Source of the DNA: an uncultured Rikenella sp.
GTDB taxonomy: Bacteria; Bacteroidota; Bacteroidia; Bacteroidales; VadinHA17
DNA: 64,000 nucleotides
Assembly (NCBI GenBank): GCA_964411345.1
Contig: CAYPKP010000002.1
Coordinates: 67,312 to 131,311 of the forward strand
Direction: 5' to 3'
In this document: one piece after another, positions 8,222-39,047 of the stretch
Numbering within the stretch: position 1 is the first letter of the stretch
How the letters are laid out: the number at the start of each line of letters is the position of its first letter
Notes under the pieces: generated by a model
Seen by the model: only the letters and a program-made list of their open reading frames with translations
What the model was told of the DNA's origin: nothing
Database searches by the model: none
Made by a program: the position numbers and the translations under genes

Positions 8222-8229
8222 TACTTTTG
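8222..8229 (+). promoter_or_regulatory. candidate Bacteroidota -7 box (TACTTTTG) for the CotH-family gene
   Basis: TACTTTTG matches TAnnTTTG, 22 nt upstream of the ATG at 8251. Confidence 0.45.
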
Positions 8230-8250
8230 GATCATCACCCGGCTTCACCT

Positions 8251-21376: not shown

Positions 21377-22264
21377 TCATACATATTTCAGGTTCCCGTC
21401 CTTGTCCCAGATACCCCAGAAGGCTCCCACATCTCCTTCCTTTTCAATCTTCCAGGCTTCGTCAAAGCTGGAGAAATACATAATCTCGATTTTCTCCTGC
21501 AGGCTCCACTTCTGTGTGTTGATGAAATACCGGAGGGCATTGTCCGTGGAAGGCTCAGATGCCCTGAAGGCCTTTCCCTTATCCGGCCATCCCGTCTCAC
21601 TGATAACCACCCTCTTTCCCCTGGCAGCCTGGATCACGCTGAAGTACATGTTTTTCATGTAGACCAGTGAATAGTCAATATGGCAGCCTTCCCAGAAGGG
21701 ATAGCAGTTGATGAACAGCACATCGCACGCTTCAGTGATTGCCGGCCTGTTGACAAATTCGTAATAGGCATCAACGTAACCCACACTGGCCTGCGGCACC
21801 TGCTGCTTAACCCTGTGAATATAGTCGAGCAATTCCTGCTCCGTCAGTTCACCGCGGTACAGGACTTCGTTTCCTACAGCCACGAGGTCCGCATCTCCTT
21901 GCCTTACGACCCTGATCAGGTTCTCTATCTCCTCTTCGTTATGTTCCCTGTCATCACCAAGCCATGCTCCAGCCATTACCTTAAGGCCATACTCCCTCGC
22001 AATCCGCGGAATATTTTCATGACCGTCGGTGCAGGAAAATGTCCTGATCCAGGAGGTATACGGTTTAATGATTTCCATCCTCTTCCGGATCTGTTCCTCA
22101 CTGACGATGCTGCCTGGTGCCTGACCCTCAACATAGGAGCTGAAACAGAGACCGTGAATCCCATTCTCAAGGAAATCCCTGAACAGCTTCTTCAGGTCGG
22201 CAGTTGATTTGTTGCTGAAGTCCTCTCCCGTGAGAGAGAGGTATTTGTCGCTTCTGTATGACAT
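21377..22264 (-). CDS. glycoside hydrolase family 17, no signal peptide
   Basis: VAVGNEVLY and VVISETGWPDKG are the GH17 acid/base and nucleophile motifs. The N terminus MSYRSDKYLSLTGEDFSNK has no signal peptide. Confidence 0.85.
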   Translation of the reverse strand: MSYRSDKYLSLTGEDFSNKSTADLKKLFRDFLENGIHGLCFSSYVEGQAPGSIVSEEQIRKRMEIIKPYTSWIRTFSCTDGHENIPRIAREYGLKVMAGAWLGDDREHNEEEIENLIRVVRQGDADLVAVGNEVLYRGELTEQELLDYIHRVKQQVPQASVGYVDAYYEFVNRPAITEACDVLFINCYPFWEGCHIDYSLVYMKNMYFSVIQAARGKRVVISETGWPDKGKAFRASEPSTDNALRYFINTQKWSLQEKIEIMYFSSFDEAWKIEKEGDVGAFWGIWDKDGNLKYV

Positions 22265-24000: not shown

Positions 24001-24813
24001 CTATTTATCGTTCACTTCGGTATATACCCTGACGTAATCAACATACATCGTCTGGGGAAACGGTGTATCGGAGGTCGGAAACCCAACATAATCACCGCCG
24101 ACAGCCACATTAAGAATTATGAAGAAAGGGTTATCGAAGACCCACTCACCTGTCAGATCACCGGGTTCAATAGCCTGATAAAGCACATCATCAACAAAAT
24201 AGTGTATGAAATTCTCGCCCCATTCTACTGCAAAAAGATGATAATCAACATCAAACCTGTTGTTTGCATACCCGTAGCTCTTTGTTATTGCGGCACCTCC
24301 CGAATAGCCGGGTCCGTGAACGCTGCCATGTATCAGGTTGGGTTGCTGACCGCGGTATTCCATGATATCAATCTCACCGCACTGTGGCCACGGATTGGTT
24401 TCGATGTCAGCACCCAGCATCCAGAAAGCCGGCCATATGCCAGGGCCCCACGGCAGTTTTATCCGGGCTTCAAAGCGACCGTAGGCCTGTTCAAATTTCC
24501 CCTGCGTCTTGATCCTTGCCGAGGTGAAGGTACCGCCGTTGTTGATTGCGGTAATTTTCAGCGATCCGTCAGCGACCACCACGTTCTGCGCATCGTTGGT
24601 GTAGGCTTGCAGTTCATTGTTGCCCCAGCCGCCTCCTCCGAGGTCAAATGCCCATTTTGATCCGTCAGGAGCTCCGTCGGTATCAAACTCATCCTGCCAG
24701 ACCAGCTGATATGTGCGATCCTCCAGTCCTGAGTTGTTCTCACAAGCTCCCAGCATGAAAAGAGCTGCCAGGAAGAGGATTCCCCTGATAATTAATAGAT
24801 TATTTGATTTCAT
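24001..24813 (-). CDS. glycoside hydrolase family 16 lipoprotein (laminarinase-type)
   Basis: Lipobox FMLGACENN. GH16 catalytic motif CGEIDIMEY, plus WPAFWMLG. Confidence 0.9.
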   Translation of the reverse strand: MKSNNLLIIRGILFLAALFMLGACENNSGLEDRTYQLVWQDEFDTDGAPDGSKWAFDLGGGGWGNNELQAYTNDAQNVVVADGSLKITAINNGGTFTSARIKTQGKFEQAYGRFEARIKLPWGPGIWPAFWMLGADIETNPWPQCGEIDIMEYRGQQPNLIHGSVHGPGYSGGAAITKSYGYANNRFDVDYHLFAVEWGENFIHYFVDDVLYQAIEPGDLTGEWVFDNPFFIILNVAVGGDYVGFPTSDTPFPQTMYVDYVRVYTEVNDK

Positions 24814-24908: not shown

Positions 24909-27900
24909 TTATTTCCAGAGATAGATGTTATCATACCATACATTGGTCAGGTTGGCGGTAGTAATCCCGATCTGGGCTACGTTGCTTCTTGTAAGGTTAC
25001 CTGCGACAACCCCTCCAAGGGCGGTGATATCAACATCCACGGAGACCCAGGTACCCGCAACTATGGCAGGTGTTGTTCCCGTGTTGATGTTGACTTCCAG
25101 GGCAGAAGCCTCCCCTGTGCCACCTGCAAAATCAACCAGTTTTACATTGAAGACATCACCGGTAAGGTTGGTATCATCCGTATAGAAATCGAAATGGATA
25201 TGTGTGAAGGAGGAGAGGTCCTGCCTGTTGGCAGAAAAATCAATTCCGTGACAGTCTACTCCGGCATTCTTCTTCAGGGTATTGTTACCGTCGATTGACA
25301 CCTGGGTGACAGCTGAGCCTCCGCACCATCCGGCATCAAAGTTTCCAATGGTGATGTTGGTATAGGCATCACTGTAGATGGATACCACATTGGCGGCGCT
25401 GCGTGCAGGCGGCGTAGGAGCTGCAGCAGTCGGTCCCGTGGCCGTGCTGCCGCCGTCATTGTAGAAATAGAAATTGTCTATCCAGACGGTGGTGGCGCCG
25501 GAAGGCTGTCCCACAAAGATATACTGTGCCAGGTGAGCCCTCGTCGTCAGGCCGGCGAAATCACTCAGCGGTATGTCATAGCTGACCCACACACCCGTTG
25601 CAGGTGAGGCATAGTCCTTCTGGTGTTCCACATCATCACCGCCCCCGAATGCCCCGTCGGCACCAAAGTCAACAAGCTTGACACTGAAGCTGGTGTAGTC
25701 GGCAGACCATACATCAAGGTGCACGTGGGTCATCGACGTAGCGTCAATGGTCGATGAGGTGGTCTCCACACCGACAAAATTGAGCGCAGAATATTTCTTC
25801 GTCGGATTACCGGCTACAGACACCTCCTCATAGGTCGCAGCAGACCAGTCGGTTCTCCAGGTGTCCACCGTAACGTTGGCGTAGGCACCGCTGAACAGGG
25901 AGATTACATCATCAGTATTCCTTGCAGGAGGCGTCGGCGCCGCAGCTGCCGGCTCTGTTGCCGTGCTGCCGCCCTCATTGTAGAAGTAGATATTGTCTAT
26001 CCAGACGGTGGTGGCGCCGGAAGGCTGTCCCACAAAAATATACTGTGCCAGGTGAGCCCTCGTCGTCAGGCCGGCGAAATCACTCAGCGGTATGTCATAG
26101 CTGACCCACACACCCGTTGCAGGTGAGGCATAGTCCTTCTGGTGTTCCACATCATCACCGCCCCCGAATGCCCCGTCGGCACCAAAGTCAACAAGCTTGA
26201 CACTGAAGCTGGTGTAGTCGGCAGACCATACATCAAGGTGCACGTGGGTCATCGACGTAGCGTCAATGGTCGATGAGGTGGTCTCCACACCGACAAAATT
26301 GAGCGCAGAATATTTCTTCGTCGGATTACCGGCTACAGACACCTCCTCATAGGTCGCAGCAGACCAGTCGGTTCTCCAGGTGTCCACCGTAACGTTGGCG
26401 TAGGCACCGCTGAACAGGGAGATTACATCATCAGTATTCCTTGCAGGAGGCGTCGGCGCCGCAGCTGCCGGCTCTGTGCCCGTGCCGCCACCCGATTTGT
26501 AGAAGTAGATGTTGTCCACATAGACAGTGCTCAGATTGCTTGAAAGCACCATCTGGGCAAGATCCGATCTTGTCTGGTCTCCGGCAAAGGCCGTTATCGG
26601 GACATCCACCGAAACCCATGAACCTTTTGCCAGTGCCGGAACATCTCCGCTGGCAGTATGGACAATGGTGAGTATATGGCTTGAAGCCTCTGCGGCACCG
26701 CCACCGAAATCAACATTCTTTATTGAAAGTGACTTCGAGACAACCTCATCGGGAGTCCAGATATCAATATGGAAATGAGTCATTCCCGAGGCATCAAACT
26801 TGTTGCTGCTGAAGTCAATACCTGCGAAATTGGTGAATGAATACTTCTTCACATCATCACCTGCAACCTGCACATCTGCAACATCCGAATCATCCCATTC
26901 TGCTGACCATGTTGAGACAGTTCTGTTTGTATATGCGTTGCTGAAAAGAGATATTACATCAGCAGCATCCCTTGCAGGCGGCACCGGGGCAGCCACGGCC
27001 GGCCCACCCGCTGTTCCTCCTCCGGAGGTGTAGAAGTATAAATTATCAAGATAAATATCACCGTTGCCGTCGAACTTCAGCTGAATAATATCGGCAAGAT
27101 CAACCGGAGAGAAGGCAGTCAGCGGAATATCAACACTTGTCCATCCTGTTGTTGGCACCGTGAGTGTATAGTCCTCTTCCACAGCTGGCGTTCCGGGACT
27201 TATCAGCCAGACTTTAAGTCCTGTTGAGTTTGCTGTCCAGAAGTCCAGGTGCAGATACTCCATACCTGTGACATTCTGACTGGCTGCCAGCTGTATGCCC
27301 TGGTAATTCAGTCCGGCAAACTTCAGTGTATTGTTACCAGCTACCTGAATTTCAGAGACCACAGTAACCTGGCCCCAGTCGGGGTAGTCGGTGCCTTCAA
27401 GATTGGTGTAGGCATCTCCGTAGATGGAGATCACATCAGCCGCATCCCTGGCCGGAGGCGCTGGTGCAGCCTCAGTGGGTACTGTAGGTGTACCTCCTCC
27501 GTTACCGTAGAGATAGACATTGTCAAGGTAGAAGCCCGACAGGGATGATCCCAGGCGTTCAAGAATTATCTGTGCCAGTTTGCTCCTGGAGGAGAGTCCG
27601 GCCAGAGGAATGTCAACACTGATCCAGCTTTGCGAAGCCAGCGGGCCGGCAATCTCATAAACAAGAGTTGGGTCATTGCCATCGAGGGCTCCGTCGGGAC
27701 CCATATCCACCAGCTTTATTGCAAGTTTGTCTGTAGCAGCCACCGCATTCGGAATCCAGATGTCCATATGCAGGTGTGTCATGGTGCTGGCATCTATTGT
27801 CGGCGATGTAAACTGAATTCCCACAAAATTGAAATTGGTATAGAAGAGCACATCATCATCACCTACCTTGAAATCTGCTGAAGTGGTAGTCTGGTAAGGC

Positions 27901-28901
27901 TGCCAGTATCCGTTGTAGAAATCAACCGGCACGTTAACGTATTGATTGCTGAAGATGGAAATAACATCTTCCTGGTCCTGTGCGGGCACCGGGGCGTGTG
28001 TAAAATCACCCGAGGAATTGACAGTCAGTGATCCCATGGCATCCGTACCGCCGGCAGTGGCAGTGATAACGGCTGTTCCTTCACTAAGTACCGAAACCAG
28101 TCCTGTTGCATCCACGCTTGCCACACTCGCATTTGAAGAGACAAAAGTAAAATATGCAGGTGCCGCATTGACTGTCTGGTCGATTCCGGTGGGCATACTG
28201 AAGGATACTCCCAGTCCGCCAACGGGAAACTTCAGTCCGTTCACGGCCGATTCAACCTCATCATTTCCTCCCAGTATCATCGGCTTCCGGTGAGCGATGG
28301 TGCCAAGCTTCTCAAACTTCACCTCATCAATCCAGAATGTATATCCCAGGCCCTCTTCGGGACCTTCGGAATAGAAAAACATGCCCTTCTCCTGCTTCAG
28401 CCTGGAGGGATCAGGTATCGGGATGATGTATTTCTTCCAGTTGGTATTTACAGCGACATTCTGCATTGAGACGAGGTACTTTGATTCCCCGAGGTCATTG
28501 CCGAAGCCAACCAGGTCAATGCTGGCTGATTTTGAAGCTTTGGCCCAGAAGGTCAGTGCATCGTAGCCTGAGAGATCACGTCCCACGTTTGTAAAGTAAG
28601 TACCGCCGGCATAAGCCCCCAGCGGATCCTCAAAGTCAGGCACCTCGAATCTCATCGATGCCGAACCCTCATATTTAACCTCCTTGTCAACATCAAAAGC
28701 GGTTACCTTGGAACCGCCAAATGCTGCATAGTTGAGTCCGGCGCTGAAACCGTCGATGAAAACTTCGGGTGTGGTGGGATAGGAAGCAAGCTCCAGTTCA
28801 TCAAAATCCCTTGTACAGCTGCCGGAGCCCGCGAGCACCATGGCAGCGATAAGGAGAACTGCTGACCAGTTATATTTCTTGTTTTTCATTTTAGTCTCCA
28901 T
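24909..28901 (-). CDS. 1330-aa multi-module surface lipoprotein (candidate surface glycan-binding protein; 7 CBM-like beta-sandwich modules + Big_2-like domain)
   Basis: Lipobox LAGSGSCTRDFDELE (alternative ATG at 28889). The N-terminal module ends WIDEVKFEK. A Big_2-like segment follows (SNASVASVDATGLVSVLSEGTAVITATAGG). Then come six ~170-aa modules, each ending (Y/W)xDN(I/V/L/F)Y(L/F)(Y/W) and joined by GGG...AAAPTPPAR(D/N)xxDVIS(L/I)(F/Y) linkers. The position after susD/PKD and before GH16 fits an SGBP. Confidence 0.7.
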   Translation of the reverse strand: METKMKNKKYNWSAVLLIAAMVLAGSGSCTRDFDELELASYPTTPEVFIDGFSAGLNYAAFGGSKVTAFDVDKEVKYEGSASMRFEVPDFEDPLGAYAGGTYFTNVGRDLSGYDALTFWAKASKSASIDLVGFGNDLGESKYLVSMQNVAVNTNWKKYIIPIPDPSRLKQEKGMFFYSEGPEEGLGYTFWIDEVKFEKLGTIAHRKPMILGGNDEVESAVNGLKFPVGGLGVSFSMPTGIDQTVNAAPAYFTFVSSNASVASVDATGLVSVLSEGTAVITATAGGTDAMGSLTVNSSGDFTHAPVPAQDQEDVISIFSNQYVNVPVDFYNGYWQPYQTTTSADFKVGDDDVLFYTNFNFVGIQFTSPTIDASTMTHLHMDIWIPNAVAATDKLAIKLVDMGPDGALDGNDPTLVYEIAGPLASQSWISVDIPLAGLSSRSKLAQIILERLGSSLSGFYLDNVYLYGNGGGTPTVPTEAAPAPPARDAADVISIYGDAYTNLEGTDYPDWGQVTVVSEIQVAGNNTLKFAGLNYQGIQLAASQNVTGMEYLHLDFWTANSTGLKVWLISPGTPAVEEDYTLTVPTTGWTSVDIPLTAFSPVDLADIIQLKFDGNGDIYLDNLYFYTSGGGTAGGPAVAAPVPPARDAADVISLFSNAYTNRTVSTWSAEWDDSDVADVQVAGDDVKKYSFTNFAGIDFSSNKFDASGMTHFHIDIWTPDEVVSKSLSIKNVDFGGGAAEASSHILTIVHTASGDVPALAKGSWVSVDVPITAFAGDQTRSDLAQMVLSSNLSTVYVDNIYFYKSGGGTGTEPAAAAPTPPARNTDDVISLFSGAYANVTVDTWRTDWSAATYEEVSVAGNPTKKYSALNFVGVETTSSTIDATSMTHVHLDVWSADYTSFSVKLVDFGADGAFGGGDDVEHQKDYASPATGVWVSYDIPLSDFAGLTTRAHLAQYIFVGQPSGATTVWIDNIYFYNEGGSTATEPAAAAPTPPARNTDDVISLFSGAYANVTVDTWRTDWSAATYEEVSVAGNPTKKYSALNFVGVETTSSTIDATSMTHVHLDVWSADYTSFSVKLVDFGADGAFGGGDDVEHQKDYASPATGVWVSYDIPLSDFAGLTTRAHLAQYIFVGQPSGATTVWIDNFYFYNDGGSTATGPTAAAPTPPARSAANVVSIYSDAYTNITIGNFDAGWCGGSAVTQVSIDGNNTLKKNAGVDCHGIDFSANRQDLSSFTHIHFDFYTDDTNLTGDVFNVKLVDFAGGTGEASALEVNINTGTTPAIVAGTWVSVDVDITALGGVVAGNLTRSNVAQIGITTANLTNVWYDNIYLWK
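25441..26478. repeat. near-perfect tandem duplication, 2 x 519 nt, in frame inside the 1330-aa gene
   Basis: 25481-25957 and 26000-26476 (offset 519 nt = 173 codons) are identical by eye except 25518 g versus 26037 a. A few more mismatches lie at the 5' edges (25461-25480 versus 25980-25999). Confidence 0.9.
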
Positions 28902-28907
28902 TTATGG

Positions 28908-31900
28908 TTACATGCCTATATTGAAATGCAGATAAGTCCTGATCTCCCATTCATTGCCCCTGGGATAACCCGGCACCGTGGGGTCACAGATCATATCTCC
29001 GTTTACGTCTATGTTTTTCGTCGGACAGTAGCGGGGTGAATACTGATCAAGAGAACGCCAGTTGAAACGTATTCCTATCCGTGTCTGTGGCAGGTCGACC
29101 CATTTGGGTTTTGCCACGAAGGTTGACAGGTCAGCCTTTATCTGAAGGGGGTATGTCAGGTTGAAGTCGCGGTGATAGTCATATGGACCCCAATCGTTGA
29201 CCTTGACCATCGAAATCAGCTTTGCCTTTTTGTATATCATTCTGAGATCTCCGCCGTACCGACGTATCAGTCGTTCGTCGCTCCCGTTTGATTCAGCGGT
29301 CCCCGCAAAGAGATTGGCAATTAATCCCAGGTTGGGTGTTGGCTTGGAGACTATCCGGGAGTATGCTTCCCAGAGGTCGCGTGCCGGCGGCGCGCCGTCA
29401 AATGCAAAGGTAGCGCGTCCGTCTGCCAGTATGCCTATGGCAGCATCCTGGGTTGTCGGGTGGTGGCGGTAGACGAATCCGGCGCTGATCGCGAACGGAG
29501 CATCTTCACTCTCGTCATTATCCCATTCGTACATCCAGGTAGCGGGTGTCGGGTCATAGGTTAACAGGAACTCTCCCGCAACCGTCTCCCTGTTGTGCCT
29601 TACGGCAAAGGGATCATCCAGAATGTTCCTGGCTCTTCCCGGAGCCGGCACATCTCCCGGCACCGGACCAATGACCGGCTTCTGCCACAGGAAGTTGGGA
29701 GCAAACTGGAAATCACCTACCAGCACGGTCAGACCAGTCAGAAAGTTGAACTGGTTTCCGCTTCCGCTGTCCTTGAGCCTCCATCCCGTAAAGGTCTTCG
29801 TGTAGTCGGCACCCCCACCGGCCACCAGTCCCATGGCAGCTCCCTGGGCATACCAGTTTACAGGTCCGGCGGAGAGAGTCAGTTTGGCCTTGCCGCCCCA
29901 GGTGTCATTGGAATTGATCTTATCCTCATAAACGGTGTAGTTGCCTGGCTCTCCTTCCACCAACTGGAACGTCTCTCCCACTCTCGGCTGGCCTGCCCAT
30001 ATACCTCCAAGTTCCAGTCCTACGGGCCCCATCTGCCTTTTGATATGCAGTGTGGTTCTTCGCGTCGGCGGTGAGGGTATGGCAAATGAGCTTACCGCCG
30101 GTGCCTGTTCATCAAGGTCCTCATGATAAATCCCCGTCAGGTCAAACCCGGCAAGCGTCCTGCTGTATTTTACCAGGACGGCAGGGTTGGCTCCCCACCA
30201 GAGCTCCGGCCCGAAGGCAACCTTCAGACCATCCAGTGCCCTCTTACCGTCAATCTCAAAGCCGAAAGGCGCCTCACCGTTGTATATATCCATATTCGGA
30301 CCGTAGTTGGCCTCCGGATAGAGGCCGAAGAAGTCGCCCTCATAGCCCCAGTGATAGTGACCGGTGCGGTAGAAGCTGGTAAAGTCAAACATTTTGGCAT
30401 TCCAGGTAAACTCAGCACTGTATACTTTAACACGGTTCAATGCAGAGAGCATCAGATTGCCGTCATCGGTATTAACCTCGCGGGCACGGCCCCTGTTCTC
30501 ATAGAAGATCTCATCTATCGGATTCTCCGCGATATTGCCCAGAACGTTTATGGCAACCTTCCCGCGAAGGTTGGGGGCAGGATTTGCTTCCACGTCGACA
30601 TAGAACGACTGCATGTGATCGAAGCCCAGTTCATCCGGGTATTTCAGGGCTCCCGGAACAGGGTCAACCGGCGTTGATATCCTGCTGCCCCCTGTACTGA
30701 ATGTTGACAATTCGGCTCTAAGCCCGCTGACCCGCACTTTTTTGACCTGCTCGCCGACCAGTGTAGCTTTGTCTCCTCTCGCCCGGAGGACGGCATCGCT
30801 CAGTTCAATGCCTGAAAAGTGCCTGTCAAGCGATTCGGGTGTGACTCCGTCATCATAGGGATTCACGGTGTGAACCTCCTTCAGTGCATAATATGCCGCC
30901 CGGGGGTAGAGCTGGTAAAGCCCCCGTTCATTTGTCGGACCCTTGGCGCAGATACCAAACCACTCCTCATTCATGTTGTTCTCACCCGGCACATAATCGT
31001 TGAGATAACCGCCGTTGGCCCAGGAGGCATGGTTGTCATGAACGTCGAGGTCCGTGGTCTGGCCATATTTCCACCAGCCGTCGCTGAACTGGAACGTGAA
31101 GCCTCCGATGCAGTTACCGGCTTTGCCGAGACCTGCTGCATTGGCATAGATCTCCTTCCAGTTTTCTACCATGTAGTAGGCCTGGGACTGCTGGTCTTCA
31201 TCATTTTCAACGGCATTGAATGCATCAGCACCAAACTCCGTGAACATGATCGGAATGTCGAGTACATCCTTCACTCTCTGGAATGCATCACCAAAAGATG
31301 CTCCCCTGTACATGTTCACGCCAAATATCTCAACATCAGTGCACTCTTCCGCGATGATATCCAGGAAAAGCAGATCACCGTTACAGATTGCAACGGGATG
31401 CGTCCTGTCAATATCCGCCATTACATTCACTGCTTCATTAAAGAGCTTGTACATATGACGTGCCCTGGTGGTCGACTTTCTGTCCTCCACCGGGATATCC
31501 TCCGTTTCGGCTCCCTCCCAGAAAAGACCATAGTTGTTTTCATTGCCCAGCAGAAACATCAGCAATCCGGGCGTATCCTTGTAGTCGTTTACCATCTCCT
31601 TTACCTCGGAAAGGAGCAGCTCGCGAACGCGCGGATCTGAGTACTCGGTGTTAGGAACCCACTGGCCGCTCAGGGTGAGACCATACCGCCCGAACGAATG
31701 ATTTAGCATTGTGTAGATGCCATAATTCCTGTAGATGTATTCGATCCATCGGGCCGGGACCCCGGTGTACTGTCGTATGGCATTCACACCCATATTCCTC
31801 AGAAGCGACATCTCTGCATCGAGGGCAGCCTTTATGACGTCGTCAGACTGCTTCCACAGACTGTAGGTCACAGTCGTTCCTATGGGAAAATAATCCCAGT

Positions 31901-32054
31901 TCATACCGTTGATCATAAAATCCTGGCCGTTGACTGCCAGCTTGATTTCGTCATCCTGCCTTACCACAGTAACCCTGTCAGCCTGCGCATTCATGGCTGA
32001 TGTTACTGTAAATAAAACAATTAGAAATCGCAGAAACAGGAGATTTTTTTTCAT
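28908..32054 (-). CDS. clan GH-A glycoside hydrolase domain fused to a ~600-aa C-terminal beta-barrel-like region
   Basis: SPI-type signal MKKNLLFLRFLIVLFTVTSAMNAQA with no lipobox. Residues ~30-420 carry LLGNENNYG (N171-E172) and IMFTEFGADAF (E273), the spacing and motifs of a clan GH-A TIM barrel, plus GFTFQFSDGWW as in GH2-type catalytic domains. Residues ~440-1048 are Gly/aromatic-rich amphipathic strands up to ...NEWEIRTYLHFNIGM. Confidence 0.6.
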   Translation of the reverse strand: MKKNLLFLRFLIVLFTVTSAMNAQADRVTVVRQDDEIKLAVNGQDFMINGMNWDYFPIGTTVTYSLWKQSDDVIKAALDAEMSLLRNMGVNAIRQYTGVPARWIEYIYRNYGIYTMLNHSFGRYGLTLSGQWVPNTEYSDPRVRELLLSEVKEMVNDYKDTPGLLMFLLGNENNYGLFWEGAETEDIPVEDRKSTTRARHMYKLFNEAVNVMADIDRTHPVAICNGDLLFLDIIAEECTDVEIFGVNMYRGASFGDAFQRVKDVLDIPIMFTEFGADAFNAVENDEDQQSQAYYMVENWKEIYANAAGLGKAGNCIGGFTFQFSDGWWKYGQTTDLDVHDNHASWANGGYLNDYVPGENNMNEEWFGICAKGPTNERGLYQLYPRAAYYALKEVHTVNPYDDGVTPESLDRHFSGIELSDAVLRARGDKATLVGEQVKKVRVSGLRAELSTFSTGGSRISTPVDPVPGALKYPDELGFDHMQSFYVDVEANPAPNLRGKVAINVLGNIAENPIDEIFYENRGRAREVNTDDGNLMLSALNRVKVYSAEFTWNAKMFDFTSFYRTGHYHWGYEGDFFGLYPEANYGPNMDIYNGEAPFGFEIDGKRALDGLKVAFGPELWWGANPAVLVKYSRTLAGFDLTGIYHEDLDEQAPAVSSFAIPSPPTRRTTLHIKRQMGPVGLELGGIWAGQPRVGETFQLVEGEPGNYTVYEDKINSNDTWGGKAKLTLSAGPVNWYAQGAAMGLVAGGGADYTKTFTGWRLKDSGSGNQFNFLTGLTVLVGDFQFAPNFLWQKPVIGPVPGDVPAPGRARNILDDPFAVRHNRETVAGEFLLTYDPTPATWMYEWDNDESEDAPFAISAGFVYRHHPTTQDAAIGILADGRATFAFDGAPPARDLWEAYSRIVSKPTPNLGLIANLFAGTAESNGSDERLIRRYGGDLRMIYKKAKLISMVKVNDWGPYDYHRDFNLTYPLQIKADLSTFVAKPKWVDLPQTRIGIRFNWRSLDQYSPRYCPTKNIDVNGDMICDPTVPGYPRGNEWEIRTYLHFNIGM

Positions 32055-32223
32055 ACTATTCAGGTTTGAGATTATCTGCTAACTTTTTTGTTTCTCATGA
32101 TGGCGGCCATTCATTCAACTGCCTCCTGCATCATGAGCTGAAACAGCGTTACAAGTAAGTTAAAAGTTGTTTCAAGTCCTGCTGTCTGATAGAAAGAAAA
32201 ATACATCATAAGCCGTCAAAATA

Positions 32224-32240
32224 TACATCAATACTACATC
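32224..32240 (-). promoter_or_regulatory. promoter-like element shared with the susC upstream region
   Basis: The minus strand reads GATGTAGTATTGATGTA. The susC upstream region has TGTAGTATTTTTGATGTA at 42241-42258. The embedded TAGTATTG is one mismatch from TAnnTTTG. It lies 170 nt upstream of the ATG at 32054, inside an AT-rich island. Confidence 0.4.
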
Positions 32241-32490
32241 ATATATTTATTATGTGTCTATTATACTATGCTTTATCAATTATTTTAAGCGTCACTGGCT
32301 CATCATACAGTAAAAACCTGTACATCAAAAGGAGAAAAGAAGAACGCGAAAGGAGGAGCAGGATAACTGGGCGGTGATGTATAAACGAAGAAGAGGAGGA
32401 GAGCAGATTTACATCAGATGATAGACCGGAGCAGCACGCCGGACTGGCCCTTGACATGCATCGGACAATCCCCGGAACCGTGCCCTGGAT

Positions 32491-32611
32491 CTGCAGAAGA
32501 TAATCCGACGTAATCCTGTGCCTCATATCCGCATAACATAATCCACGGGAATCCCGCCTCGGTTCTGCACAAGATAATCCGCCGTAATCCTGTGCCTCGG
32601 TTCTGCACAAG
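32491..32611. repeat. intergenic direct repeats (34-mers and 17-mers) rich in GGATTA units
   Basis: 32491-32524 ctgcagaagataatccgacgtaatcctgtgcctc and 32565-32598 ctgcacaagataatccgccgtaatcctgtgcctc differ at 2 positions. cctcggttctgcacaag occurs at both 32557-32573 and 32595-32611. Confidence 0.9.
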
Positions 32612-32633
32612 TCAAAATCCTCCGGGTCCTCCC

Positions 32634-35573
32634 TCAGATCTGCATCAGATAATCAACCAGATTAACACTCTGATCAAGCTTCAGCTTTTTCCTCAGCCGA
32701 TACCTGCTGATCTCAACGCCTCGTACCGAGATATTCATCAGGGGGGCAATCTCCTTGGTTGTAACATTCATCCTCAGGTAGCTGCAGAGTCTCAGTTCAC
32801 CGGGGGTTAGCTCCGGATGAAGGTTCCTTAGCCGGGAATGGAACTCCTGATGGACTTCATCAAAGTAACGGTCAAAGACCTCCCAGCTCTTTTCATTCTG
32901 TATATCACGGTCTATCTTACGGCTGATCTTTTTCAGATCAGCTGCCACAGACTCATTCCTGGCATTCTGGATCAAAACTGACAGTTCCTGTTTAAGGGAA
33001 TTAAGGAACTTGTTCTTCTGTATTATGTGATAGGCAGCCGATGTCAGCTCCTTGTTCTTATGCTTCATCTCAGACTGCAACCTTTCGTTCTTGAGTTGCA
33101 TCACCTCTGCTTCTGCTGCCAGTTTCTGCTCCTCAAGGGTCTGCTCGGCCTTTTTGAATGCATCGATCTGCCTGTTCTTCTCCTGTAACCTCACCCTCTC
33201 TATTCTTCTCAGATATAGGTATGTTGAGGCCAGGATGGCGCCGGAAAACAGGAGAAAATAGAGGATCAGCGCCTTGATTGACCTGGAGAAGGGAGGTTCA
33301 ACAGTAAAGCAAAAACGATCCTCAGCACTCACATTCCCGTATATGTTTCTCGCTTTCACCTCGAAACAGTAATCACCCTCGTGCAGATTGGTGTACTCCT
33401 TGCTGTTTGACATTGACCAGTCTGACCACTCATCATCAAAATCCGTCAGGCGATAGCTGTACTCAATGTGTCCGGTATTCTCCATATCCGGAGAGTTGAA
33501 CCTGAAGGAGATATTGTTCCACGCGTAGGGCAATGCAAACTGTTCATCAATTTCATGCTCAGCAAGATGTGAGTTGCCGGAGAAATAGTATAATGAATCC
33601 TCGCCCTTTGAGGAAACAGTGACCCTGTTCACGTAGACGTACATCTCATCGAAGTAGTTCTTGTAGATTGACGGGTCATAGTGAACCAGTCCTTTCTGTG
33701 TGCCTATGAATATATTGGCCGGATCCTGGATATAGATATTGTCAAACGGTGAAACACGGGTATCATTGAGGTCCAGAAACGGTGTCGAGATATTGGTAAA
33801 TGTTCCGTCCTCCAGAAGTCTGAATACACCCATCCCCTCACGGGCTGAATACCACAGATTACGGTTTTGATCTTCCTTCAGGAAATAGATAAGAGTGAAG
33901 TCACTGAAGAAATCATTCAGCTCTTCGGGTTTATAGAAAAGCGCTGTCTGCTCGTCAAACTGGTAAATCCCCTCGCTGGTTGAGATGAAAAATTCGCCTG
34001 ATCTGGCATGCAGAATGTAGGGCAGCGACTCAGGCAGATTGCTGGTGCCCCTGTATTCCTTCACATAGACAACAGAGTCAAGGCTTTCATTGAGATGGAT
34101 CCGGAAGAGTCCCAGGTACCCATGGCTCATCCAGAGCCGGTTGTCATCACCCAAAATCAGGTCCTTGGATGAGACCTCAAACCCCTGAACCCTGTTTCTG
34201 AACCTCCATCTTCCATCCCTGCCTTTTTCAAGGATTATCAATCCGTCATAGGTGCCACTGAGCAGCAGGTTGTCACGACCCGGGATCGGCTTGAAGTTCC
34301 AGACACCCCTGCTGTTGGTAAGCTTCGTGGATTTTGTCCCTTCAATTGAATATGCCCCGTTGTGATGCCCGCAAAGAAGCTGTCCGCCCGCTACTGTCAG
34401 ATCCCAGACCTGTCCTTCCATGCCTTCAACAAGGTCATACTCGATGTTTATGTGGCTTCTGATCTTGCCAAGCTCCTTGGTAAAGAGACCCTGGTTGGTT
34501 CCGATATAGAATCTGCCGTTATGGATTGCAGTGGCGTAAGTGGCAGCAATATTGAAATTGTCATTAATAACTGATGTCGGGAGACTTGACTTGAGAAAAT
34601 CAATCCCGATGTCAAGTCCAAGCCAGACATTATCCTGACGGTCAACAAACAGTGACAGAACGGTGTTGTTTTGCAGGCCGTTGGATCTGCTCAGATGTTC
34701 CTGAATCTCCCCTCTCTCATTCACCACAAACAGTCCGCTCTTTATGGTTCCGAACAGGTAGGTGCTATTTTGAACTGACCCGCAATAAAGCTTGGATGTT
34801 TTAAGCTCTCCGGAAATTTCGGTATCCCAGGGTTTCATGATCCGGCCTGAGAGCACAAAGAGCCCGTTGTTCATTGTTCCAACAAGAAGATCGTTCGCAT
34901 TTACCGGAGTGAGTGACTGAATTTCATCCTGAGAGAACAGGCGGTCATCAGTTACAGTCTCAAGGCCGCCGTCAACCAGCATCCTCAGTCCCACCCCTAT
35001 CTCAACTACATAATAATTATTATTGACGTAGAAGGAGTTGCCGAACCTCTCCACGGGCCTGATAACATGAACAGCGTTGTTCTTGTAGATGAAGATGGAT
35101 TCAAAACTCTGGAAAACGACCCCGAACCTGGTCTGGTAAATGTTCCATACATCATCAAAATTCCTGGCATTTTCGGGTATAAGATGATTCAGGGAACTAT
35201 ATATGATTCCTGCTTCGGCTGATCTTTCAAGAACGCCTATTTCGTTATATGCACCGACATACAACCTGTTGTCAGAACCGAATGCCAGCGACCTTACAAT
35301 CGAACTGTTGGATACAGGAAATGTCTCCCAGTCCTCCCCGTCAAATCGCAGTATACCGTTATTATTGGCGACATAGATATTTCCCTGCTTATCATCAACG
35401 ATATTCCAGTTCTGGGTCCCCCCCCTGTACTCATTTCTGTCTATGTTCCATATTTCCGGGACCCCGATGGATTTAAACTGGCCGGAGAGGCTAAGCGTGG
35501 GGAATATAGCCAGCACCAAAATTATTCTCCTGCAGTCAGACAGTAACATGGCTGTAAATGATTGAACTGTCAT
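32634..35573 (-). CDS. membrane-spanning sensor-regulator: periplasmic beta-propellers + Y_Y_Y domain, one TM helix, coiled coil, LuxR/GerE-type HTH (no kinase or receiver domain)
   Basis: 979 aa. The N-terminal ~750 aa have the repeated propeller pattern of two-component-regulator propeller/Y_Y_Y proteins (...YSYRLTDFDDEWSDW...). TM helix ALILYFLLFSGAILASTYLYL. C-terminal LTPGELRLCSYLRMNVTTKEIAPLMNISVRGVEISRYRLRKKLKL is a LuxR-type HTH. No H-box or HATPase motifs seen. Confidence 0.8.
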   Translation of the reverse strand: MTVQSFTAMLLSDCRRIILVLAIFPTLSLSGQFKSIGVPEIWNIDRNEYRGGTQNWNIVDDKQGNIYVANNNGILRFDGEDWETFPVSNSSIVRSLAFGSDNRLYVGAYNEIGVLERSAEAGIIYSSLNHLIPENARNFDDVWNIYQTRFGVVFQSFESIFIYKNNAVHVIRPVERFGNSFYVNNNYYVVEIGVGLRMLVDGGLETVTDDRLFSQDEIQSLTPVNANDLLVGTMNNGLFVLSGRIMKPWDTEISGELKTSKLYCGSVQNSTYLFGTIKSGLFVVNERGEIQEHLSRSNGLQNNTVLSLFVDRQDNVWLGLDIGIDFLKSSLPTSVINDNFNIAATYATAIHNGRFYIGTNQGLFTKELGKIRSHINIEYDLVEGMEGQVWDLTVAGGQLLCGHHNGAYSIEGTKSTKLTNSRGVWNFKPIPGRDNLLLSGTYDGLIILEKGRDGRWRFRNRVQGFEVSSKDLILGDDNRLWMSHGYLGLFRIHLNESLDSVVYVKEYRGTSNLPESLPYILHARSGEFFISTSEGIYQFDEQTALFYKPEELNDFFSDFTLIYFLKEDQNRNLWYSAREGMGVFRLLEDGTFTNISTPFLDLNDTRVSPFDNIYIQDPANIFIGTQKGLVHYDPSIYKNYFDEMYVYVNRVTVSSKGEDSLYYFSGNSHLAEHEIDEQFALPYAWNNISFRFNSPDMENTGHIEYSYRLTDFDDEWSDWSMSNSKEYTNLHEGDYCFEVKARNIYGNVSAEDRFCFTVEPPFSRSIKALILYFLLFSGAILASTYLYLRRIERVRLQEKNRQIDAFKKAEQTLEEQKLAAEAEVMQLKNERLQSEMKHKNKELTSAAYHIIQKNKFLNSLKQELSVLIQNARNESVAADLKKISRKIDRDIQNEKSWEVFDRYFDEVHQEFHSRLRNLHPELTPGELRLCSYLRMNVTTKEIAPLMNISVRGVEISRYRLRKKLKLDQSVNLVDYLMQI

Positions 35574-35659: not shown

Positions 35660-37399
35660 CTATTTATGGATACCCTCCACATGAGGTCCTGACAATTCGT
35701 CAAAGTAGAATGAATGGGTGCCGTCACCCACGCCGGGATTGCACATGATCCTCACCACATTGTAAAAGTCATGGTTGAAATTGTCATCCGCGACGATGTT
35801 TGATGTGAAGATATCTCCTGTCCAGTCCCATCCGGCGCCAACACCGTTGAAGTCATACTCTGCCACTTCCCAGGTGTTGTCCTTCTGGATTGTATATATC
35901 AGGTCATAGGTTCCCGTCTGCCATGCATTGCCGCCCTTGTCGGTATTTTCCAGCTTCAGGAGTATCTGATCCCCGGCTTTCCCGTAGACCATGACCTTGA
36001 ATACCTGTTGCAGCCTGAGGTCAAACCTGAAGCCCGCGCTTAGCTGCATATAGGCATTGGCCCACTGGTTGTTGGTCTTGGTGTAGTAAGCCACCTTTGC
36101 CGATTTGTTCGGATATTCCTTGTACGGGTTGTCAACAGTGGTGACACTGCAATCCTGTCCCAGCACCGGGAAGACCTGCACCTCGCTGAAATCGTTGTAA
36201 ACGATCATCATGTCAAGCAGGAACTCCACATATGCCGAGTTGTTGTTGGCCAGCACAACCTGCTGAGTACCGGTGAGCACCCCGAGGCTGGAGTTGATCT
36301 TTGCAGTAACGTTATATGTGCCTTTACGCATGTATACATGATTTACCACCTCATCCTTGCCTCCGGTAACCTCATCACTGCCGTCACCGAAGTTCCAGGT
36401 GATGCCGGTAACACTCTGGCCTGCCGGAATAGAGTAGTCCGTAACAGAGCAGGCTACATTGTTATCAGTGCCCTCCGTTGCGTTAACTGTATAGGTTATC
36501 GTAGGTTTCACATAGCCGGCCGGTATTAACTGATAATGCCAGGCATTTCCATCACCTCCTATGGCAACCATAACCAGCAGGTTTTCTTCAATATTCAGGA
36601 TCTCATACTTCCCGCCTACAGCTCCTACATCAAAAATTGGGAATATCGGTTTTGTGCTCGACAATGTGAGGTATGATTTTCCGCCGCTTTCCTCAATGAA
36701 CCAGGTTCCGGGTTCAGGAGTAAAAGTAACTTCATAGTCAGTATCATTCTGAACAGGGTTGCTGTATGCCGGATCAGAAATCCTGAAGTCTTTGACATAA
36801 CTCTTACCCTTGTTCAGGTATGTTGCAGCAAATCCGTCAATTTTGAAGTTGATCAGATCATCATACAATACCTTAACGCCCTGTTTTGCCAGAGGAGCGG
36901 CTGACCACCATTCAAGTCCGGCGCCACCGGGAGCTCCGACACCGAGGTGGCCCTGAGCCATGCTGTCCAGCGCCCAGGTTTTACCATCGAGGTCATCAAT
37001 ACCACCTGACAGGAAAATGAATTTAGGATCGGTGAATATTGCATAATCTGTTTCAGTCTGGGTCAGCATCTTGGTGATCGTGGCCATACCACCCCTCGTG
37101 ATCAGGGTCAGCTTTACAGTATAGTCCCCGGGCATCGGATACCTGACAACATTTGACTTGCCGCTTCCCTTGGCTCCGTTGCCGAAGTCCCATGAGGCAA
37201 TACCGGTAACGGATGAGGTGTTTGTGATCACAAAGTTGAATTCGTCACTTCCTGGTGCAATGGAGAAATCAAGCTGGTCAGCCGTCGGAGGATTCCCGAT
37301 ATCGGGCTTATCCGCCAGCTGAGGTTCACAGGCAGTTATCATCAGCAATAGTGCCAGGACGCCTGTCAGTCCGGATAAATGTTTATACAGTTTCATCAT
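35660..37399 (-). CDS. PKD-domain surface lipoprotein (candidate SGBP downstream of susD)
   Basis: Lipobox LLMITACEPQLADKPD. Two PKD-like segments (WDFGNGAKGSGKSNVVRYPMPGDYTVKLTLI and WNFGDGSDEVTGGKDEVVNHVYMRKGTYNVTAKI). It is located immediately after susD. Confidence 0.75.
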   Translation of the reverse strand: MMKLYKHLSGLTGVLALLLMITACEPQLADKPDIGNPPTADQLDFSIAPGSDEFNFVITNTSSVTGIASWDFGNGAKGSGKSNVVRYPMPGDYTVKLTLITRGGMATITKMLTQTETDYAIFTDPKFIFLSGGIDDLDGKTWALDSMAQGHLGVGAPGGAGLEWWSAAPLAKQGVKVLYDDLINFKIDGFAATYLNKGKSYVKDFRISDPAYSNPVQNDTDYEVTFTPEPGTWFIEESGGKSYLTLSSTKPIFPIFDVGAVGGKYEILNIEENLLVMVAIGGDGNAWHYQLIPAGYVKPTITYTVNATEGTDNNVACSVTDYSIPAGQSVTGITWNFGDGSDEVTGGKDEVVNHVYMRKGTYNVTAKINSSLGVLTGTQQVVLANNNSAYVEFLLDMMIVYNDFSEVQVFPVLGQDCSVTTVDNPYKEYPNKSAKVAYYTKTNNQWANAYMQLSAGFRFDLRLQQVFKVMVYGKAGDQILLKLENTDKGGNAWQTGTYDLIYTIQKDNTWEVAEYDFNGVGAGWDWTGDIFTSNIVADDNFNHDFYNVVRIMCNPGVGDGTHSFYFDELSGPHVEGIHK

Positions 37400-37417: not shown

Positions 37418-39028
37418 TCATAACCCCACGTAGGCCGGAACCATCTGCTTGAGTACGCCTGCGTTCATATTCCTGATCTCGCCGGCAGGAATCGGGAACA
37501 TACCCCATGAGTCGGCTTTGAAGCTACGGTTTCCGAAGTCAGCTGCATTTGGAGTACCTGAGGGAACCACGAAGCTTGCGTTGACCATCTGCTCGGAGTA
37601 GGCGAGTCCTCTCCTGAGGAGATCCCACTTCCTGAGCCCCTCGCCCCCGAATTCCACACGTCTTTCATGGTAGATGTCATCAAGGGTTATGGTAACCTTG
37701 GCTGCTGCTTCACCCAGAGCCCTGGTCCTTACCCTGTTATAATACCCTGCAGCCTTGCCGGGATCATCTACCAGCCATACCTCTGCTGCCATCAGCAGCA
37801 CATCGGCAAACCTGATATCCATATGGTTGCGCGGGAAGTTATGACTCGGATCGCCGCCCGAGCCCTGGTAGTCAGCACGCGCCATATACTTCCTGTTGAA
37901 GTAGCCGGTGTTCATGAAGGCCCGGTTATAATCGGTCAGGAGCGTTTCGGCATCATAGAGGGTGACATATTTCCTCGGGTCGCCGGGTTCAAATGCATCA
38001 GCCAGGCTCCATGTGGGAATGGAAAATGACCATCCCGGGAAAACGGTGGCGTCACCCTGGGGGTTACGCACACTGATCCATACGGATGAGAAGTTGCCGT
38101 TTATGTTCCAGCCTCCCCAGTCGCCTGATTTTGCCTTGTCCGAATACTGAATCTCGAGAACAGCTTCATTGTTGTTCTGGTTATCCCAATCGAACAGGTC
38201 GGCATAGTCAGGCACAAGTGAATACTGTTCACTGAGGATCACCTGGTCGAGGGCCGACTGCACCCATGCCTTGTTGATGGTTGTGGTTCCGTCACCCCAC
38301 TGTTCTGCCGTAAGACCCAGTCCGCTTATGGCACTCATGCCTGTGTGATAGAGGTATATGCGTGCTGCAAGTGCCTGTGCGGCGCCTTTGGATACCCGCC
38401 CTTTCTCTGCTGCAGTGACGGTCACCGGCAATGCTTCAACGGCATCAAGAAGATCTGAAGCTATCAGGGTAAAGATATCGTTCGGAGTGCTCTGTTCAAC
38501 GTTCTTGTACTCTTCCACATCGGGTAGTACCTCAGTTATCATGGGCACCCATCCGTAATGACGGACCAGGTCCCAGTAGAAGTATGCCCTCAGGAACTTG
38601 ACTTCACCCTCAAAACGTGCCTTGAGGCCGTCTGTCTCCCATGCTATATCCTCCTGCTTCTGCAGGTAGAGGTTCGCCCTGTAGATACCTGAATAGCAAC
38701 GGTTCCAGAGATCAGAAGATGAGTTGTTCTCAGGTTCCATCTTGAACATCTCCATATCCTGCCACTGGCTCATGTCCGAAGCATCGGATCCGCCGCAGAA
38801 AGCATCGTCGGACCATATATCCGACATGGTGGGAACAAACTGCCAGTTCTGTACGGAGTATGCATCATATACCGCCGTGACAGCGAGGAAGGCATCTCCC
38901 TCAGTTTTGTAGTAGTTGGCTTCTACCTGGCCGGTCTTGGGCTCAAGCTCAAGGAACTCCTGGGTACACGATGAGCCTGCAACCATCACAGCCAGAAAGA
39001 AGAGACCATATAATATTGACTTTTTCAT
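37418..39028 (-). CDS. susD: SusD/RagB family nutrient-binding outer-membrane lipoprotein
   Basis: Trimmed to ATG 39028 (cat 39026-39028), giving MKKSILYGLFFLAVMVAGSSCTQEF. SusD-like TPR-rich sequence (RAYFYWDLVRHYG, RIYLYH...), starting 19 nt downstream of susC. Confidence 0.9.
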   Translation of the reverse strand: MKKSILYGLFFLAVMVAGSSCTQEFLELEPKTGQVEANYYKTEGDAFLAVTAVYDAYSVQNWQFVPTMSDIWSDDAFCGGSDASDMSQWQDMEMFKMEPENNSSSDLWNRCYSGIYRANLYLQKQEDIAWETDGLKARFEGEVKFLRAYFYWDLVRHYGWVPMITEVLPDVEEYKNVEQSTPNDIFTLIASDLLDAVEALPVTVTAAEKGRVSKGAAQALAARIYLYHTGMSAISGLGLTAEQWGDGTTTINKAWVQSALDQVILSEQYSLVPDYADLFDWDNQNNNEAVLEIQYSDKAKSGDWGGWNINGNFSSVWISVRNPQGDATVFPGWSFSIPTWSLADAFEPGDPRKYVTLYDAETLLTDYNRAFMNTGYFNRKYMARADYQGSGGDPSHNFPRNHMDIRFADVLLMAAEVWLVDDPGKAAGYYNRVRTRALGEAAAKVTITLDDIYHERRVEFGGEGLRKWDLLRRGLAYSEQMVNASFVVPSGTPNAADFGNRSFKADSWGMFPIPAGEIRNMNAGVLKQMVPAYVGL

Positions 39029-39047
39029 ATTTCTGTTGTTTTGCATG

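Follow-up and report, generated by a model that had tools for sequence, protein, structure and literature searches.

A single gene of an uncultured Rikenella sp. encodes a protein in which a glycoside hydrolase (GH) is fused to a predicted outer-membrane (OM) beta-barrel, and we propose, with modest confidence, that this protein is a TonB-independent OM channel for beta-1,3-glucan carrying a tethered, probably periplasmic glucanase. The gene (hereafter the target) occupies positions 28908..32054 on the minus strand of the stretch of DNA analysed here (64,000 nucleotides (nt) of contig CAYPKP010000002.1, hereafter the window), begins with ATG and encodes 1048 amino acids (aa). That it is a channel, what it conducts, on which face of the membrane the enzyme stands and that cleavage is coupled to passage we infer from the fusion itself, from the folds predicted for the two halves, from catalytic residues, conservation and gene neighbourhood, and from the occurrence of the barrel as an autonomous protein. 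In kind, the target would be a substrate-specific OM channel, here of a new family that bears a fused glycosidase, and it is probably the unrecognised OM entry gate of laminarin clusters that lack SusC/SusD. The protein is laid out as follows, with the basis of each assignment in brackets.

31986..32054, minus strand: type I signal peptide, aa 1-23 (MKKNLLFLRFLIVLFTVTSAMNA, followed by QAD; direct reading of the sequence)
30804..31985, minus strand: clan GH-A (beta/alpha)8 catalytic domain, GH158-like, aa 24-417 (Pfam, AlphaFold2 (AF2), Foldseek, sequence profile)
31539..31541, minus strand: codon of E172, the predicted acid/base (N171-E172 after beta4; invariance and alignment with GH158)
31236..31238, minus strand: codon of E273, the predicted nucleophile (TEFG after beta7; invariance and alignment with TEWG/TEFG of GH158)
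30738..30803, minus strand: linker helix, aa 418-439, which leads without a break into strand 1 of the barrel (DSSP, both AF2 models)
28911..30737, minus strand: predicted OM beta-barrel of about 26 strands, aa 440-1048 (AF2, Foldseek, turn and loop pattern, dyad hydropathy)
30267..30368, minus strand: loop L3, aa 563-596 (RTGHYHWGYEGDFFGL..EANYGPNMDIYNGEAP), the best conserved of the long barrel segments and a candidate for an in-folded constriction or glycan-binding loop

The signal peptide is the sole segment of the target in which hydropathy over 19 residues exceeds 1.6, and it holds no lipobox Cys. This matches the first-pass annotation of this DNA, made from the letters alone, which had read a type I signal peptide without a lipobox Cys. 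The motifs named there are also in place (LLGNENNYG at 168, with E172; IMFTEFGADAF at 269, with E273; GFTFQFSDGWW at 318), and the five strings that it took for C-terminal strands were located at 610, 722, 769, 992 and 1034. The linker helix between the two halves has low pLDDT (predicted local distance difference test) and is poorly conserved.

In the N-terminal half, the TIM barrel begins about 25 residues past the signal peptide, and the full-length AF2 model (pLDDT 70, predicted template-modelling score (pTM) 0.52) gives the strand and helix alternation of such a barrel over residues 28-322. When this domain is compared with the PDB by Foldseek, the best matches are GH158(Pro) (E 1.1e-11), LaGH157 (E 6.6e-11) and BuGH158 (E 1.6e-10), with GH2 glucuronidases ranking lower, and a broad sequence profile of 43 diverse family members reaches BuGH158 (E 7e-11) and GH158(Pro) (E 2e-10). 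A profile of the close family reaches GH158 only at E 0.006 and the single sequence finds no GH158; searched against the PDB, the latter hits only 9fz9_A, and that weakly (E 0.035); this chain bears the deposited name 'GH2 catalytic domain-containing protein', and the match covers the stretch DGWWK...EEWFG. The GNE and TEFG motifs of the family align onto GNE and TEWG/TEFG of the GH158 structures, in which the acid/base is N136/E137 and the nucleophile E220 for BuGH158 (PMC7157763), with E143 and E229 in the same two roles for GH158(Pro) (PMC13195107). N171, E172 and E273 are invariant in 50 homologues and also in a more diverse alignment. Since both catalytic Glu are invariant and both the fold and the profile searches lead to GH158, we take the N-terminal domain to be a clan GH-A enzyme with its catalytic site intact, closest among characterised proteins to endo-beta-1,3-glucanases. 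The first-pass annotation had assigned the acid/base and the nucleophile to these same two residues and had guessed at a GH158-like domain, and it agrees with these results on both points.

Judged from the same alignments and models, the domain is not a typical GH158, and its similarity to that family is remote. The target shares with BuGH158 (PDB 6PAL) and GH158(Pro) (PDB 9ORO) the clan GH-A TIM barrel, the equivalent Asn-Glu acid/base and Glu nucleophile, and a place in beta-1,3-glucan utilisation loci next to GH16 and glycan-binding lipoproteins, but it lacks the C-terminal immunoglobulin (Ig)-like domain, made up of eight strands, which, in those enzymes, packs on alpha7/alpha8 and shapes the active site. 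In neither AF2 model does an Ig-like or sandwich domain follow the TIM barrel, which is succeeded by helices (385-439) and then by the membrane barrel. Additionally, the target carries a strongly conserved 50-residue insertion after beta8 (DGWWK...NMNEEWFG), common to 9fz9_A, and has a membrane barrel of 610 aa attached, and its signal peptide is of type I, whereas BuGH158 has a lipoprotein signal. Membership of GH2 was rejected: the Pfam match to GH2_C (residues 39-282, E 3.8e-5) is marginal, scoring 23.4 bits where the cut-off is 21, and Pfam finds neither GH2_N nor the GH2 Ig domains in the target.

The C-terminal half was modelled again in a second AF2 run, covering residues 410-1048 and using an alignment enriched with stand-alone and fused homologues from other phyla. 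In the resulting model (mean pLDDT 81.3, pTM 0.79), a helix at 418-436 is followed by 26 long antiparallel strands at 440-1046, and the two runs, made on different alignments, give the same secondary structure, one continuous 26-strand meander. All of the 50 best Foldseek matches of this half are OM barrels (TonB-dependent transporters (TBDTs), LptD, MOMP, Occ porins, OprC and MtrB), found with probability 1.0; as the template-modelling scores (TM-scores) are only 0.3-0.4, the best being 0.41 to the 26-strand MtrB, the modelled barrel appears to have no close structural relative. The connections that follow even strands measure 2, 3, 6, 2, 2, 2, 2, 2, 20, 2, 2 and 12 residues (2-3 in nine of twelve), and those that follow odd strands 19, 36, 34, 7, 18, 7, 6, 26, 31, 26, 7, 11 and 30; this alternation of short turns and long loops would put the turns, and with them the two barrel termini, in the periplasm. 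Averaged over the alignment, the barrel strands have a dyad hydropathy of 2.3, against 1.4 in the strands of the enzyme domain and 1.2 in all 10-residue windows of that domain, and a crude test for an aromatic girdle at the strand ends gave no enrichment (0.122 vs 0.128). Since strands 12 and 13 (695-712) are hydrophilic, they may form an external hairpin, in which case the true number of strands would be 24. As regards the C-terminus, the target and its Bacteroidota orthologues end in (YL)HFNIG[MKN], with an aromatic residue five positions from the end; a C-terminal Phe, the canonical OM insertion signal, is present in 36 of 49 aligned sequences, these being nearly all of the non-Bacteroidota members.

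Beyond the enzyme domain, Pfam gives no match in the barrel region of the 43 diverse members, NCBIfam gives none, and a family profile compared with the PDB sequences finds nothing there, so that the barrel family has no representative in Pfam, NCBIfam or the PDB. The first-pass annotation had likewise recognised no enzyme or CBM (carbohydrate-binding module) motif in this half and had taken it for a large beta-barrel, which the confident AF2 model and the exclusively OM-barrel fold neighbours favour. It had also raised the contrary case, that of a soluble C-terminal half made of beta-sandwich, Ig or CBM arrays; in that case the barrel would be a modelling artefact. Such domains are common in glycosidases of polysaccharide utilisation loci (PULs) and Pfam assigns nothing either way, but sandwich domains account for none of the 50 best fold matches, two differently aligned AF2 runs converge on one meander with 2-residue turns, and the non-Bacteroidota homologues end in Phe and occur as signal peptide plus barrel; we regard this case as highly improbable, and it was rejected, on the two AF2 runs and Foldseek, in favour of an antiparallel barrel of OM type. 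A degenerate TBDT or SusC barrel was rejected as well, with no match to PF07715 or PF00593 in the 43 members and an hhalign probability of 0.5% against the SusC of the window. Autotransporter and POTRA families of Pfam found no match in the target or in the 43 members.

Conservation within the barrel, measured over fused and stand-alone members with other phyla included, averages 0.52 in the strands and is higher in several of their connections. Of the long barrel segments, L3 (563-596) is conserved best (0.82); L4 (618-624, WWGANP) reaches 0.85 and the segment 834-853 (DPTP.T..Y.WDND..EDA) 0.78, with further conserved connections at the end of L9 (R..(3)DPFAV..NRE) and in L8. The segments that exceed strand conservation (L3, L4, 808-823 and 834-853) are rich in Tyr, Trp, Asp and Glu, and the long loops L1, L5 and L13 are free to vary. 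At the 129 barrel positions with at least 80% conservation, 75 of which lie outside the strands, Gly, Asp, Tyr, Ala, Glu, Asn and Pro prevail. By analogy with specific porins, these conserved loops would fit a constriction folded into the lumen or a sugar-binding path.

The family is large. The target protein is matched by more than 5386 clusters at 90% identity, and the best 120 of these are all full-length (1028-1077 aa), 70-96% identical to it and, where they carry a name, entitled either 'glycosidase' or 'GH2 TIM barrel-domain containing protein'. A genome scan, using one genome per species (GTDB), found the fusion encoded in at least 592 species-genome loci, mostly of Bacteroidota, with identities of 62-89% among the matches listed. 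Among these listed matches, the carriers belong to Flavobacteriia (Flavobacterium, Chryseobacterium, Cloacibacterium, Salinimicrobium, Sediminicola), Cytophagia (Algoriphagus), Saprospiria, Chitinophagia and Bacteroidia, and further to Ignavibacteria, Calditrichota and Gracilimonas, and the closest to the window copy are metagenome-assembled genomes of Bacteroidales and Marinilabiliaceae (loci L064, 89%; L001, 84%; L015, 80%). An identity of 62-70% over 1048 aa across Flavobacteriia, Saprospiria, Bacteroidia, Ignavibacteria and Calditrichota is unusually high for an OM protein, and suggests either a strong constraint that extends to the loops or lateral spread of the cassette. Two architectural variants were also seen (P0126, 1351 aa, and P0229, 1218 aa), one with two tandem GH-A domains before the barrel and one with a CBM4_9-type module before the GH domain.

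When the C-terminal half alone was searched against 1.84 billion representatives, 516 clusters at 50% identity were obtained, most of them fused proteins of 1000-1100 aa. Stand-alone barrels of 570-610 aa also exist, having their own signal peptide, strand 1 directly after it, and an ending of the form ...Y.F; a word-indexed search assigns them to marine Gammaproteobacteria, e.g. Marinobacterium sp. The first-pass annotation had proposed a survey of whether the two halves occur separately, and for the barrel they do: since proteins of 575-610 aa consisting of a signal peptide plus the barrel exist, the barrel is an autonomous unit. Fused forms were found also in Chromatiales, Leucothrix, Desulfuromonadaceae, Cloacimonadota and Rhodothermales, and Balneolales also carry the family; every carrier phylum is diderm, with no monoderm among the carriers found.

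The neighbourhood of the gene was compared across genomes by matching the open reading frames (ORFs) of 80 fetched loci (L001-L080) with the window proteins, and 85 loci were inspected in all. Of the 73 loci that extend far enough, 65 have the gene for a CBM lipoprotein immediately downstream; in 59 of 60 loci one of the first three genes downstream of the target is a GH16, and GH149, GH17-like, GH30 and major facilitator superfamily (MFS) genes usually come after GH16. A homologue of the BguR-type regulators of the window adjoins the target gene in many loci, and a SusC homologue is present in only 2 of the 47 loci flanked by at least 8 kb on both sides. The typical cassette contains a regulator, the barrel-glucanase, the CBM lipoprotein, GH16, periplasmic and cytoplasmic enzymes and an MFS transporter, with no SusC/D. 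The first-pass annotation had observed that the target stands in a sub-operon without a SusC/D pair, which is true of its own operon; the window does have such a pair, one operon upstream.

Outside Bacteroidota, the gammaproteobacterial stand-alone barrels lie between LacI together with an Opp/Dpp-type ATP-binding cassette (ABC) importer on one side and GH16 on the other, this GH16 having a type I signal peptide and not being a lipoprotein. Among the genes called in both stand-alone-barrel loci (10 kb upstream, 2-10 kb downstream), no TonB-dependent receptor or other OM transporter was found. A fused form on a Tara Oceans contig is accompanied by GH3, GH30, a gene of 1161 aa, the size of a GH149, and a MalK-type ABC importer, and one from another phylum by GH16, GH30 and MFS. 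Non-Bacteroidota fused genes are followed, 11-22 nt downstream, by the gene of a 207-211-aa lipoprotein (13092-13727 on the plus strand in L083; 13120-13743 on the plus strand in L085). These lipoproteins are 41% identical between phyla and match no Pfam family; none was found in the window or in the 80 loci, and they show no similarity to the N-terminus of the CBM protein. By analogy with LptE, they may be a plug or lid partner of the barrel.

All of the contexts inspected are catabolic and related to beta-1,3-glucan, which bears on a possible role in the opposite direction, with the barrel and a periplasmic glycosidase forming the OM part of a beta-glucan exopolysaccharide secretion system, as AlgE/AlgL, BcsC/BcsZ and PgaA/PgaB do. 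Synthase-dependent secretion systems indeed pair a periplasmic glycosidase or lyase with an OM barrel, and AlgE is among the fold matches. Nevertheless, no glycosyltransferase or synthase was found among the identifiable genes of the 85 loci, the neighbours are catabolic (GH16, GH3, GH17, GH30, the GH149 phosphorylase, importers, and LacI or BguR), and the laminarin PUL of Formosa agariphila, in which a GH158 is listed, is induced by laminarin. Export is therefore barely plausible, and it was rejected on gene context.

In the mechanism that we propose instead, the target would be an integral OM protein whose C-terminal 610 residues form a TonB-independent barrel of about 26 strands, serving as the OM passage for laminarin-derived beta-1,3-glucan chains. 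The N-terminal 400 residues would act as a retaining GH158-like endo-beta-1,3-glucanase, joined to strand 1 by a short helix and standing most probably at the periplasmic mouth, because the turn and loop rule puts the barrel termini in the periplasm and because the N-terminal domains of OM proteins normally remain periplasmic. At the surface, the multi-CBM lipoprotein would capture laminarin and the GH16 lipoprotein would nick it; the chains would then pass the conserved, in-folded aromatic and acidic loops into the barrel, and the tethered glucanase would cut them as they emerge, keeping the gradient steep and preventing back-diffusion. GH17, GH30, GH3, the MFS transporter and the GH149 phosphorylase would complete the breakdown. 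As modelled, a 26-strand barrel should be wide enough for a laminarin chain and should need a gate, a part that could fall to the conserved loops, to the CBM lipoprotein or, in other phyla, to the small lipoprotein. A channel of this type finds support in the modelled fold with its OM-barrel matches, the GH158 likeness of the enzyme half, the terminal Phe of the non-Bacteroidota relatives, the signal peptide, the turn and loop rule of OM proteins, the dyad hydropathy, the diderm-only distribution, the stand-alone barrels in importer loci, the cassettes without SusC/D, the conserved loops, the gap at the OM step in published clusters (PMC5827456) and the precedent of an MFS-GH17 fusion (PMC6246565).

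A more ambitious version of this proposal, which we put forward tentatively and consider rather unlikely, is that the fusion constitutes a self-contained TonB-independent import machine, which would be a new mechanism. Whole laminarin chains (degree of polymerisation 20-30) would enter through the gated 26-strand channel, and their cleavage at the periplasmic exit would work as a Brownian ratchet, making import directional without energy from the inner membrane. Processive cleavage has been reported for GH158(Pro), and the tethered enzyme possibly behaves likewise.

The main rival to the channel, a doubtful but not negligible possibility, is surface display. Here the barrel would be mainly an anchoring and secretion device through which the linker helix runs, on the pattern of type V autotransporters, and the GH158-like domain would lie outside, beside GH16 and the CBM lipoprotein, while uptake would proceed via SusC/D or general porins. 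The characterised Bacteroides GH158 enzymes are predicted cell-surface lipoproteins, the helix of the target runs directly into strand 1 in an autotransporter-like manner, one variant has an N-terminal CBM4_9, and the window has a SusC/D pair of its own, all of which fit display. However, barrels with no passenger occur in loci that still need an OM route, SusC/D is absent from most loci, and about 26 strands far exceed the 12-16 of the barrels that secrete passengers in type V autotransporters, none of whose Pfam families was matched. Moreover, the loops are the most conserved part of the barrel, for which a mere anchor would have no need, and the linker helix is poorly conserved.

The close linkage to lipoprotein genes points to another alternative, in which the barrel is a docking or assembly platform, i.e. 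a Slam-like or SusC-like scaffold that holds, exports or is capped by surface lipoproteins (the CBM protein, GH16). Its basis is the 6-nt gap to the CBM lipoprotein gene, the near-invariance of the trio, and the 207-211-aa lipoprotein after the non-Bacteroidota fused genes, reminiscent of LptD-LptE. But no lipoprotein gene adjoins the stand-alone barrels, whose neighbouring GH16 has a type I signal peptide, and a platform leaves the fused glucanase unexplained; besides, it is compatible with a channel role and does not exclude it. As an account of its own, we find the platform distinctly unlikely.

Several points weigh against the proposed channel with its periplasmic glucanase. A closed barrel, its pore size and the placement of the GH domain are suppositions drawn from scores and secondary structure, the pTM of the full-length model is only 0.52, and the TM-scores to known barrels are low (0.3-0.4). 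A 26-strand barrel would have to be gated or plugged, by parts for which there are only candidates. As to where the enzyme stands, BuGH158, the characterised relative, bears a lipoprotein signal and is predicted to act on the cell surface and not within the periplasm (PMC7157763), and a CBM4_9 before the GH domain, as in one variant, would be more sensible in an extracellular enzyme. The C-terminus of the Bacteroidota members is ...HFNIG[MKN], not an aromatic residue, and the SusC/D pair upstream means that, in this genome region, the barrel is not the sole possible route. For all members, localisation, transport and activity rest on prediction from sequences and models.

Set beside known OM systems, the target would resemble in function the sugar porins of Proteobacteria (LamB, ScrY, ChiP and CymA), with which it would share a TonB-independent, substrate-specific passage of oligosaccharides and a catabolic operon that includes an inner-membrane importer; the stand-alone gammaproteobacterial barrels fit this glycoporin picture. 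The resemblance would be functional only: searches of Pfam and the PDB find no sequence relationship for the C-terminal half, and its strands number about 26, against 14-18 in the porins. We know of no glycoporin with a fused glycoside hydrolase. Compared with SusC/SusD, the target holds the same slot in the locus (after the regulator, before the surface glycan-binding protein (SGBP) and the surface GH, with a glycan-binding lipoprotein next to it), but it has no plug, TonB box, 22-strand TBDT barrel signature or SusD partner, and its enzyme domain stands where the plug and N-terminal extension would be. LptD and MtrB are similar to it in strand number (26) and size, MtrB giving the top TM-score of 0.41; in these proteins an N-terminal or partner domain is periplasmic and a protein partner fills the lumen. 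They differ in having no sequence similarity to the target and unrelated cargo (lipopolysaccharide, cytochrome), and the small lipoprotein of other phyla is only a lead towards a comparable lumen partner.

The closest parallel in the laminarin pathway itself is FbGH17B of Formosa, an inner-membrane MFS-GH17 fusion of a transporter with a carbohydrate-active enzyme (CAZyme), for which a coupling of hydrolysis to transport has also been proposed (PMC6246565). It differs from the target in that its transporter is alpha-helical and in the inner membrane, its enzyme is C-terminal, and it belongs to another enzyme family. One of the fetched loci (L079, Ignavibacteriaceae) contains a 1107-aa ORF that matches the MFS transporter and is possibly an MFS-GH17 fusion of the same type (PMC6246565).

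Genes that are apparently equivalent to the target have been published as 'GH2' or 'GH158' with the barrel unremarked (PMC13188888; 10.64898/2026.01.10.698779). In Muricauda the gene order is the same and the first enzyme is called 'GH2 beta-glycosidase', with SusD and TonB unmentioned and SusC only in a cited title (PMC13188888), and the laminarin PUL of F. agariphila, induced 70-110-fold by laminarin under BguR, was listed with GH16_3, GH17, GH30_1, GH149 and GH158 (10.64898/2026.01.10.698779). The structure-function study of GH158 describes only the TIM barrel plus Ig-like domain architecture (PMC13195107). In the full-text literature, which did not cover subscription journals, no mention was found of a fusion of GH158 or GH2 to a barrel, or of a laminarin porin. 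The statement of the first-pass annotation that it knew of no characterised example therefore stands as far as a description of the fusion is concerned, but the gene itself is already in papers under these two names.

Laminarin represents one of the largest marine carbon fluxes, and its uptake is currently explained via SusC/D, whose expression is taken in studies of blooms to stand for the use of glycans. From many laminarin clusters SusC/D is missing, and in these the OM step is an acknowledged blank: the GH149 genes of Bacteroidetes lie either within PULs or within 'CAZyme clusters lacking susCD-like gene pairs', and the proteobacterial type I GH149 clusters are without an OM transporter (PMC5827456). 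If the channel proposed here is correct, this class of CAZyme clusters becomes a complete uptake system, the 'GH2' or 'GH158' gene of metagenomes is really a transporter-enzyme, a new family of OM barrels with no Pfam or PDB representative is defined, and the target is, as far as the literature search shows, the first catabolic glycoside hydrolase fused to an OM barrel. It also offers a testable case of hydrolysis coupled to OM passage with no TonB.

In the window, the genes surrounding the target are the following.

42398-45295, minus strand: BguR-type regulator, preceding SusC/D
39048-42119, minus strand: SusC, one operon upstream of the target
37418-39061, minus strand: SusD, one operon upstream of the target
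35660-37399, minus strand: PKD lipoprotein
32634..35573, minus strand: second BguR-type regulator, 579 nt upstream of the target (Pfam: Reg_prop, Y_Y_Y, LuxR, no kinase domain)
24909..28901, minus strand: SGBP-like lipoprotein of 1330 aa with Big_2 and five CBM-type modules, 6 nt downstream of the target (Pfam matches to Big_2 and CIA30-like families)
24001..24813, minus strand: GH16 lipoprotein of the surface endo-laminarinase type (Pfam GH16, E 4e-23; lipobox Cys, then ENNSGLED)
15180-18644, minus strand: GH149 beta-1,3-oligosaccharide phosphorylase of 1154 aa (PDB 6hq6, E = 0, residues 19-1150; no Pfam match)

Past the GH16 lipoprotein, the order on the minus strand is MFS, GH17, GH30, GH17-like, GH149, GH3, GH16 and GH30. 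The two regulators are paralogous, each with a Reg_prop beta-propeller, Y_Y_Y and a LuxR helix-turn-helix and neither with kinase or receiver domains, and they match the type of BguR, described as a 'membrane-spanning one-component' regulator of beta-glucan use (10.64898/2026.01.10.698779). A scan for promoters and terminators over 28800-32700 gave counts at the level of shuffled sequence and was uninformative.

The CBM lipoprotein, in which the lipobox Cys is followed by acidic residues, resembles a laminarin-binding multi-CBM SGBP (10.1101/2023.09.07.556657). Its gene contains a tandem copy of a 519-nt (173-aa) module, at 25452-25970 and 25971-26489 on the minus strand, which by direct comparison are 98.7% identical in nucleotides and identical at 169 of 173 aa; this is either a very recent expansion or an uncertainty of the assembly as to repeat number. 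In other genomes its homologues are between about 455 and 1377 aa long, so that the number of CBM modules varies widely.

Further along the cluster, the GH149 protein has no signal peptide and the start of its gene overlaps the upstream GH17-like gene by 44 nt; neither of the two GH17-type genes (21377-22264 and 18601-19638, both on the minus strand) encodes a signal peptide. At the end of the glucan locus, on the opposite strand (7876-10284, plus), lies the gene of a protein of 802 aa that combines CotH kinase-like and lamin-tail domains with a C-terminal sorting domain of type IX secretion.

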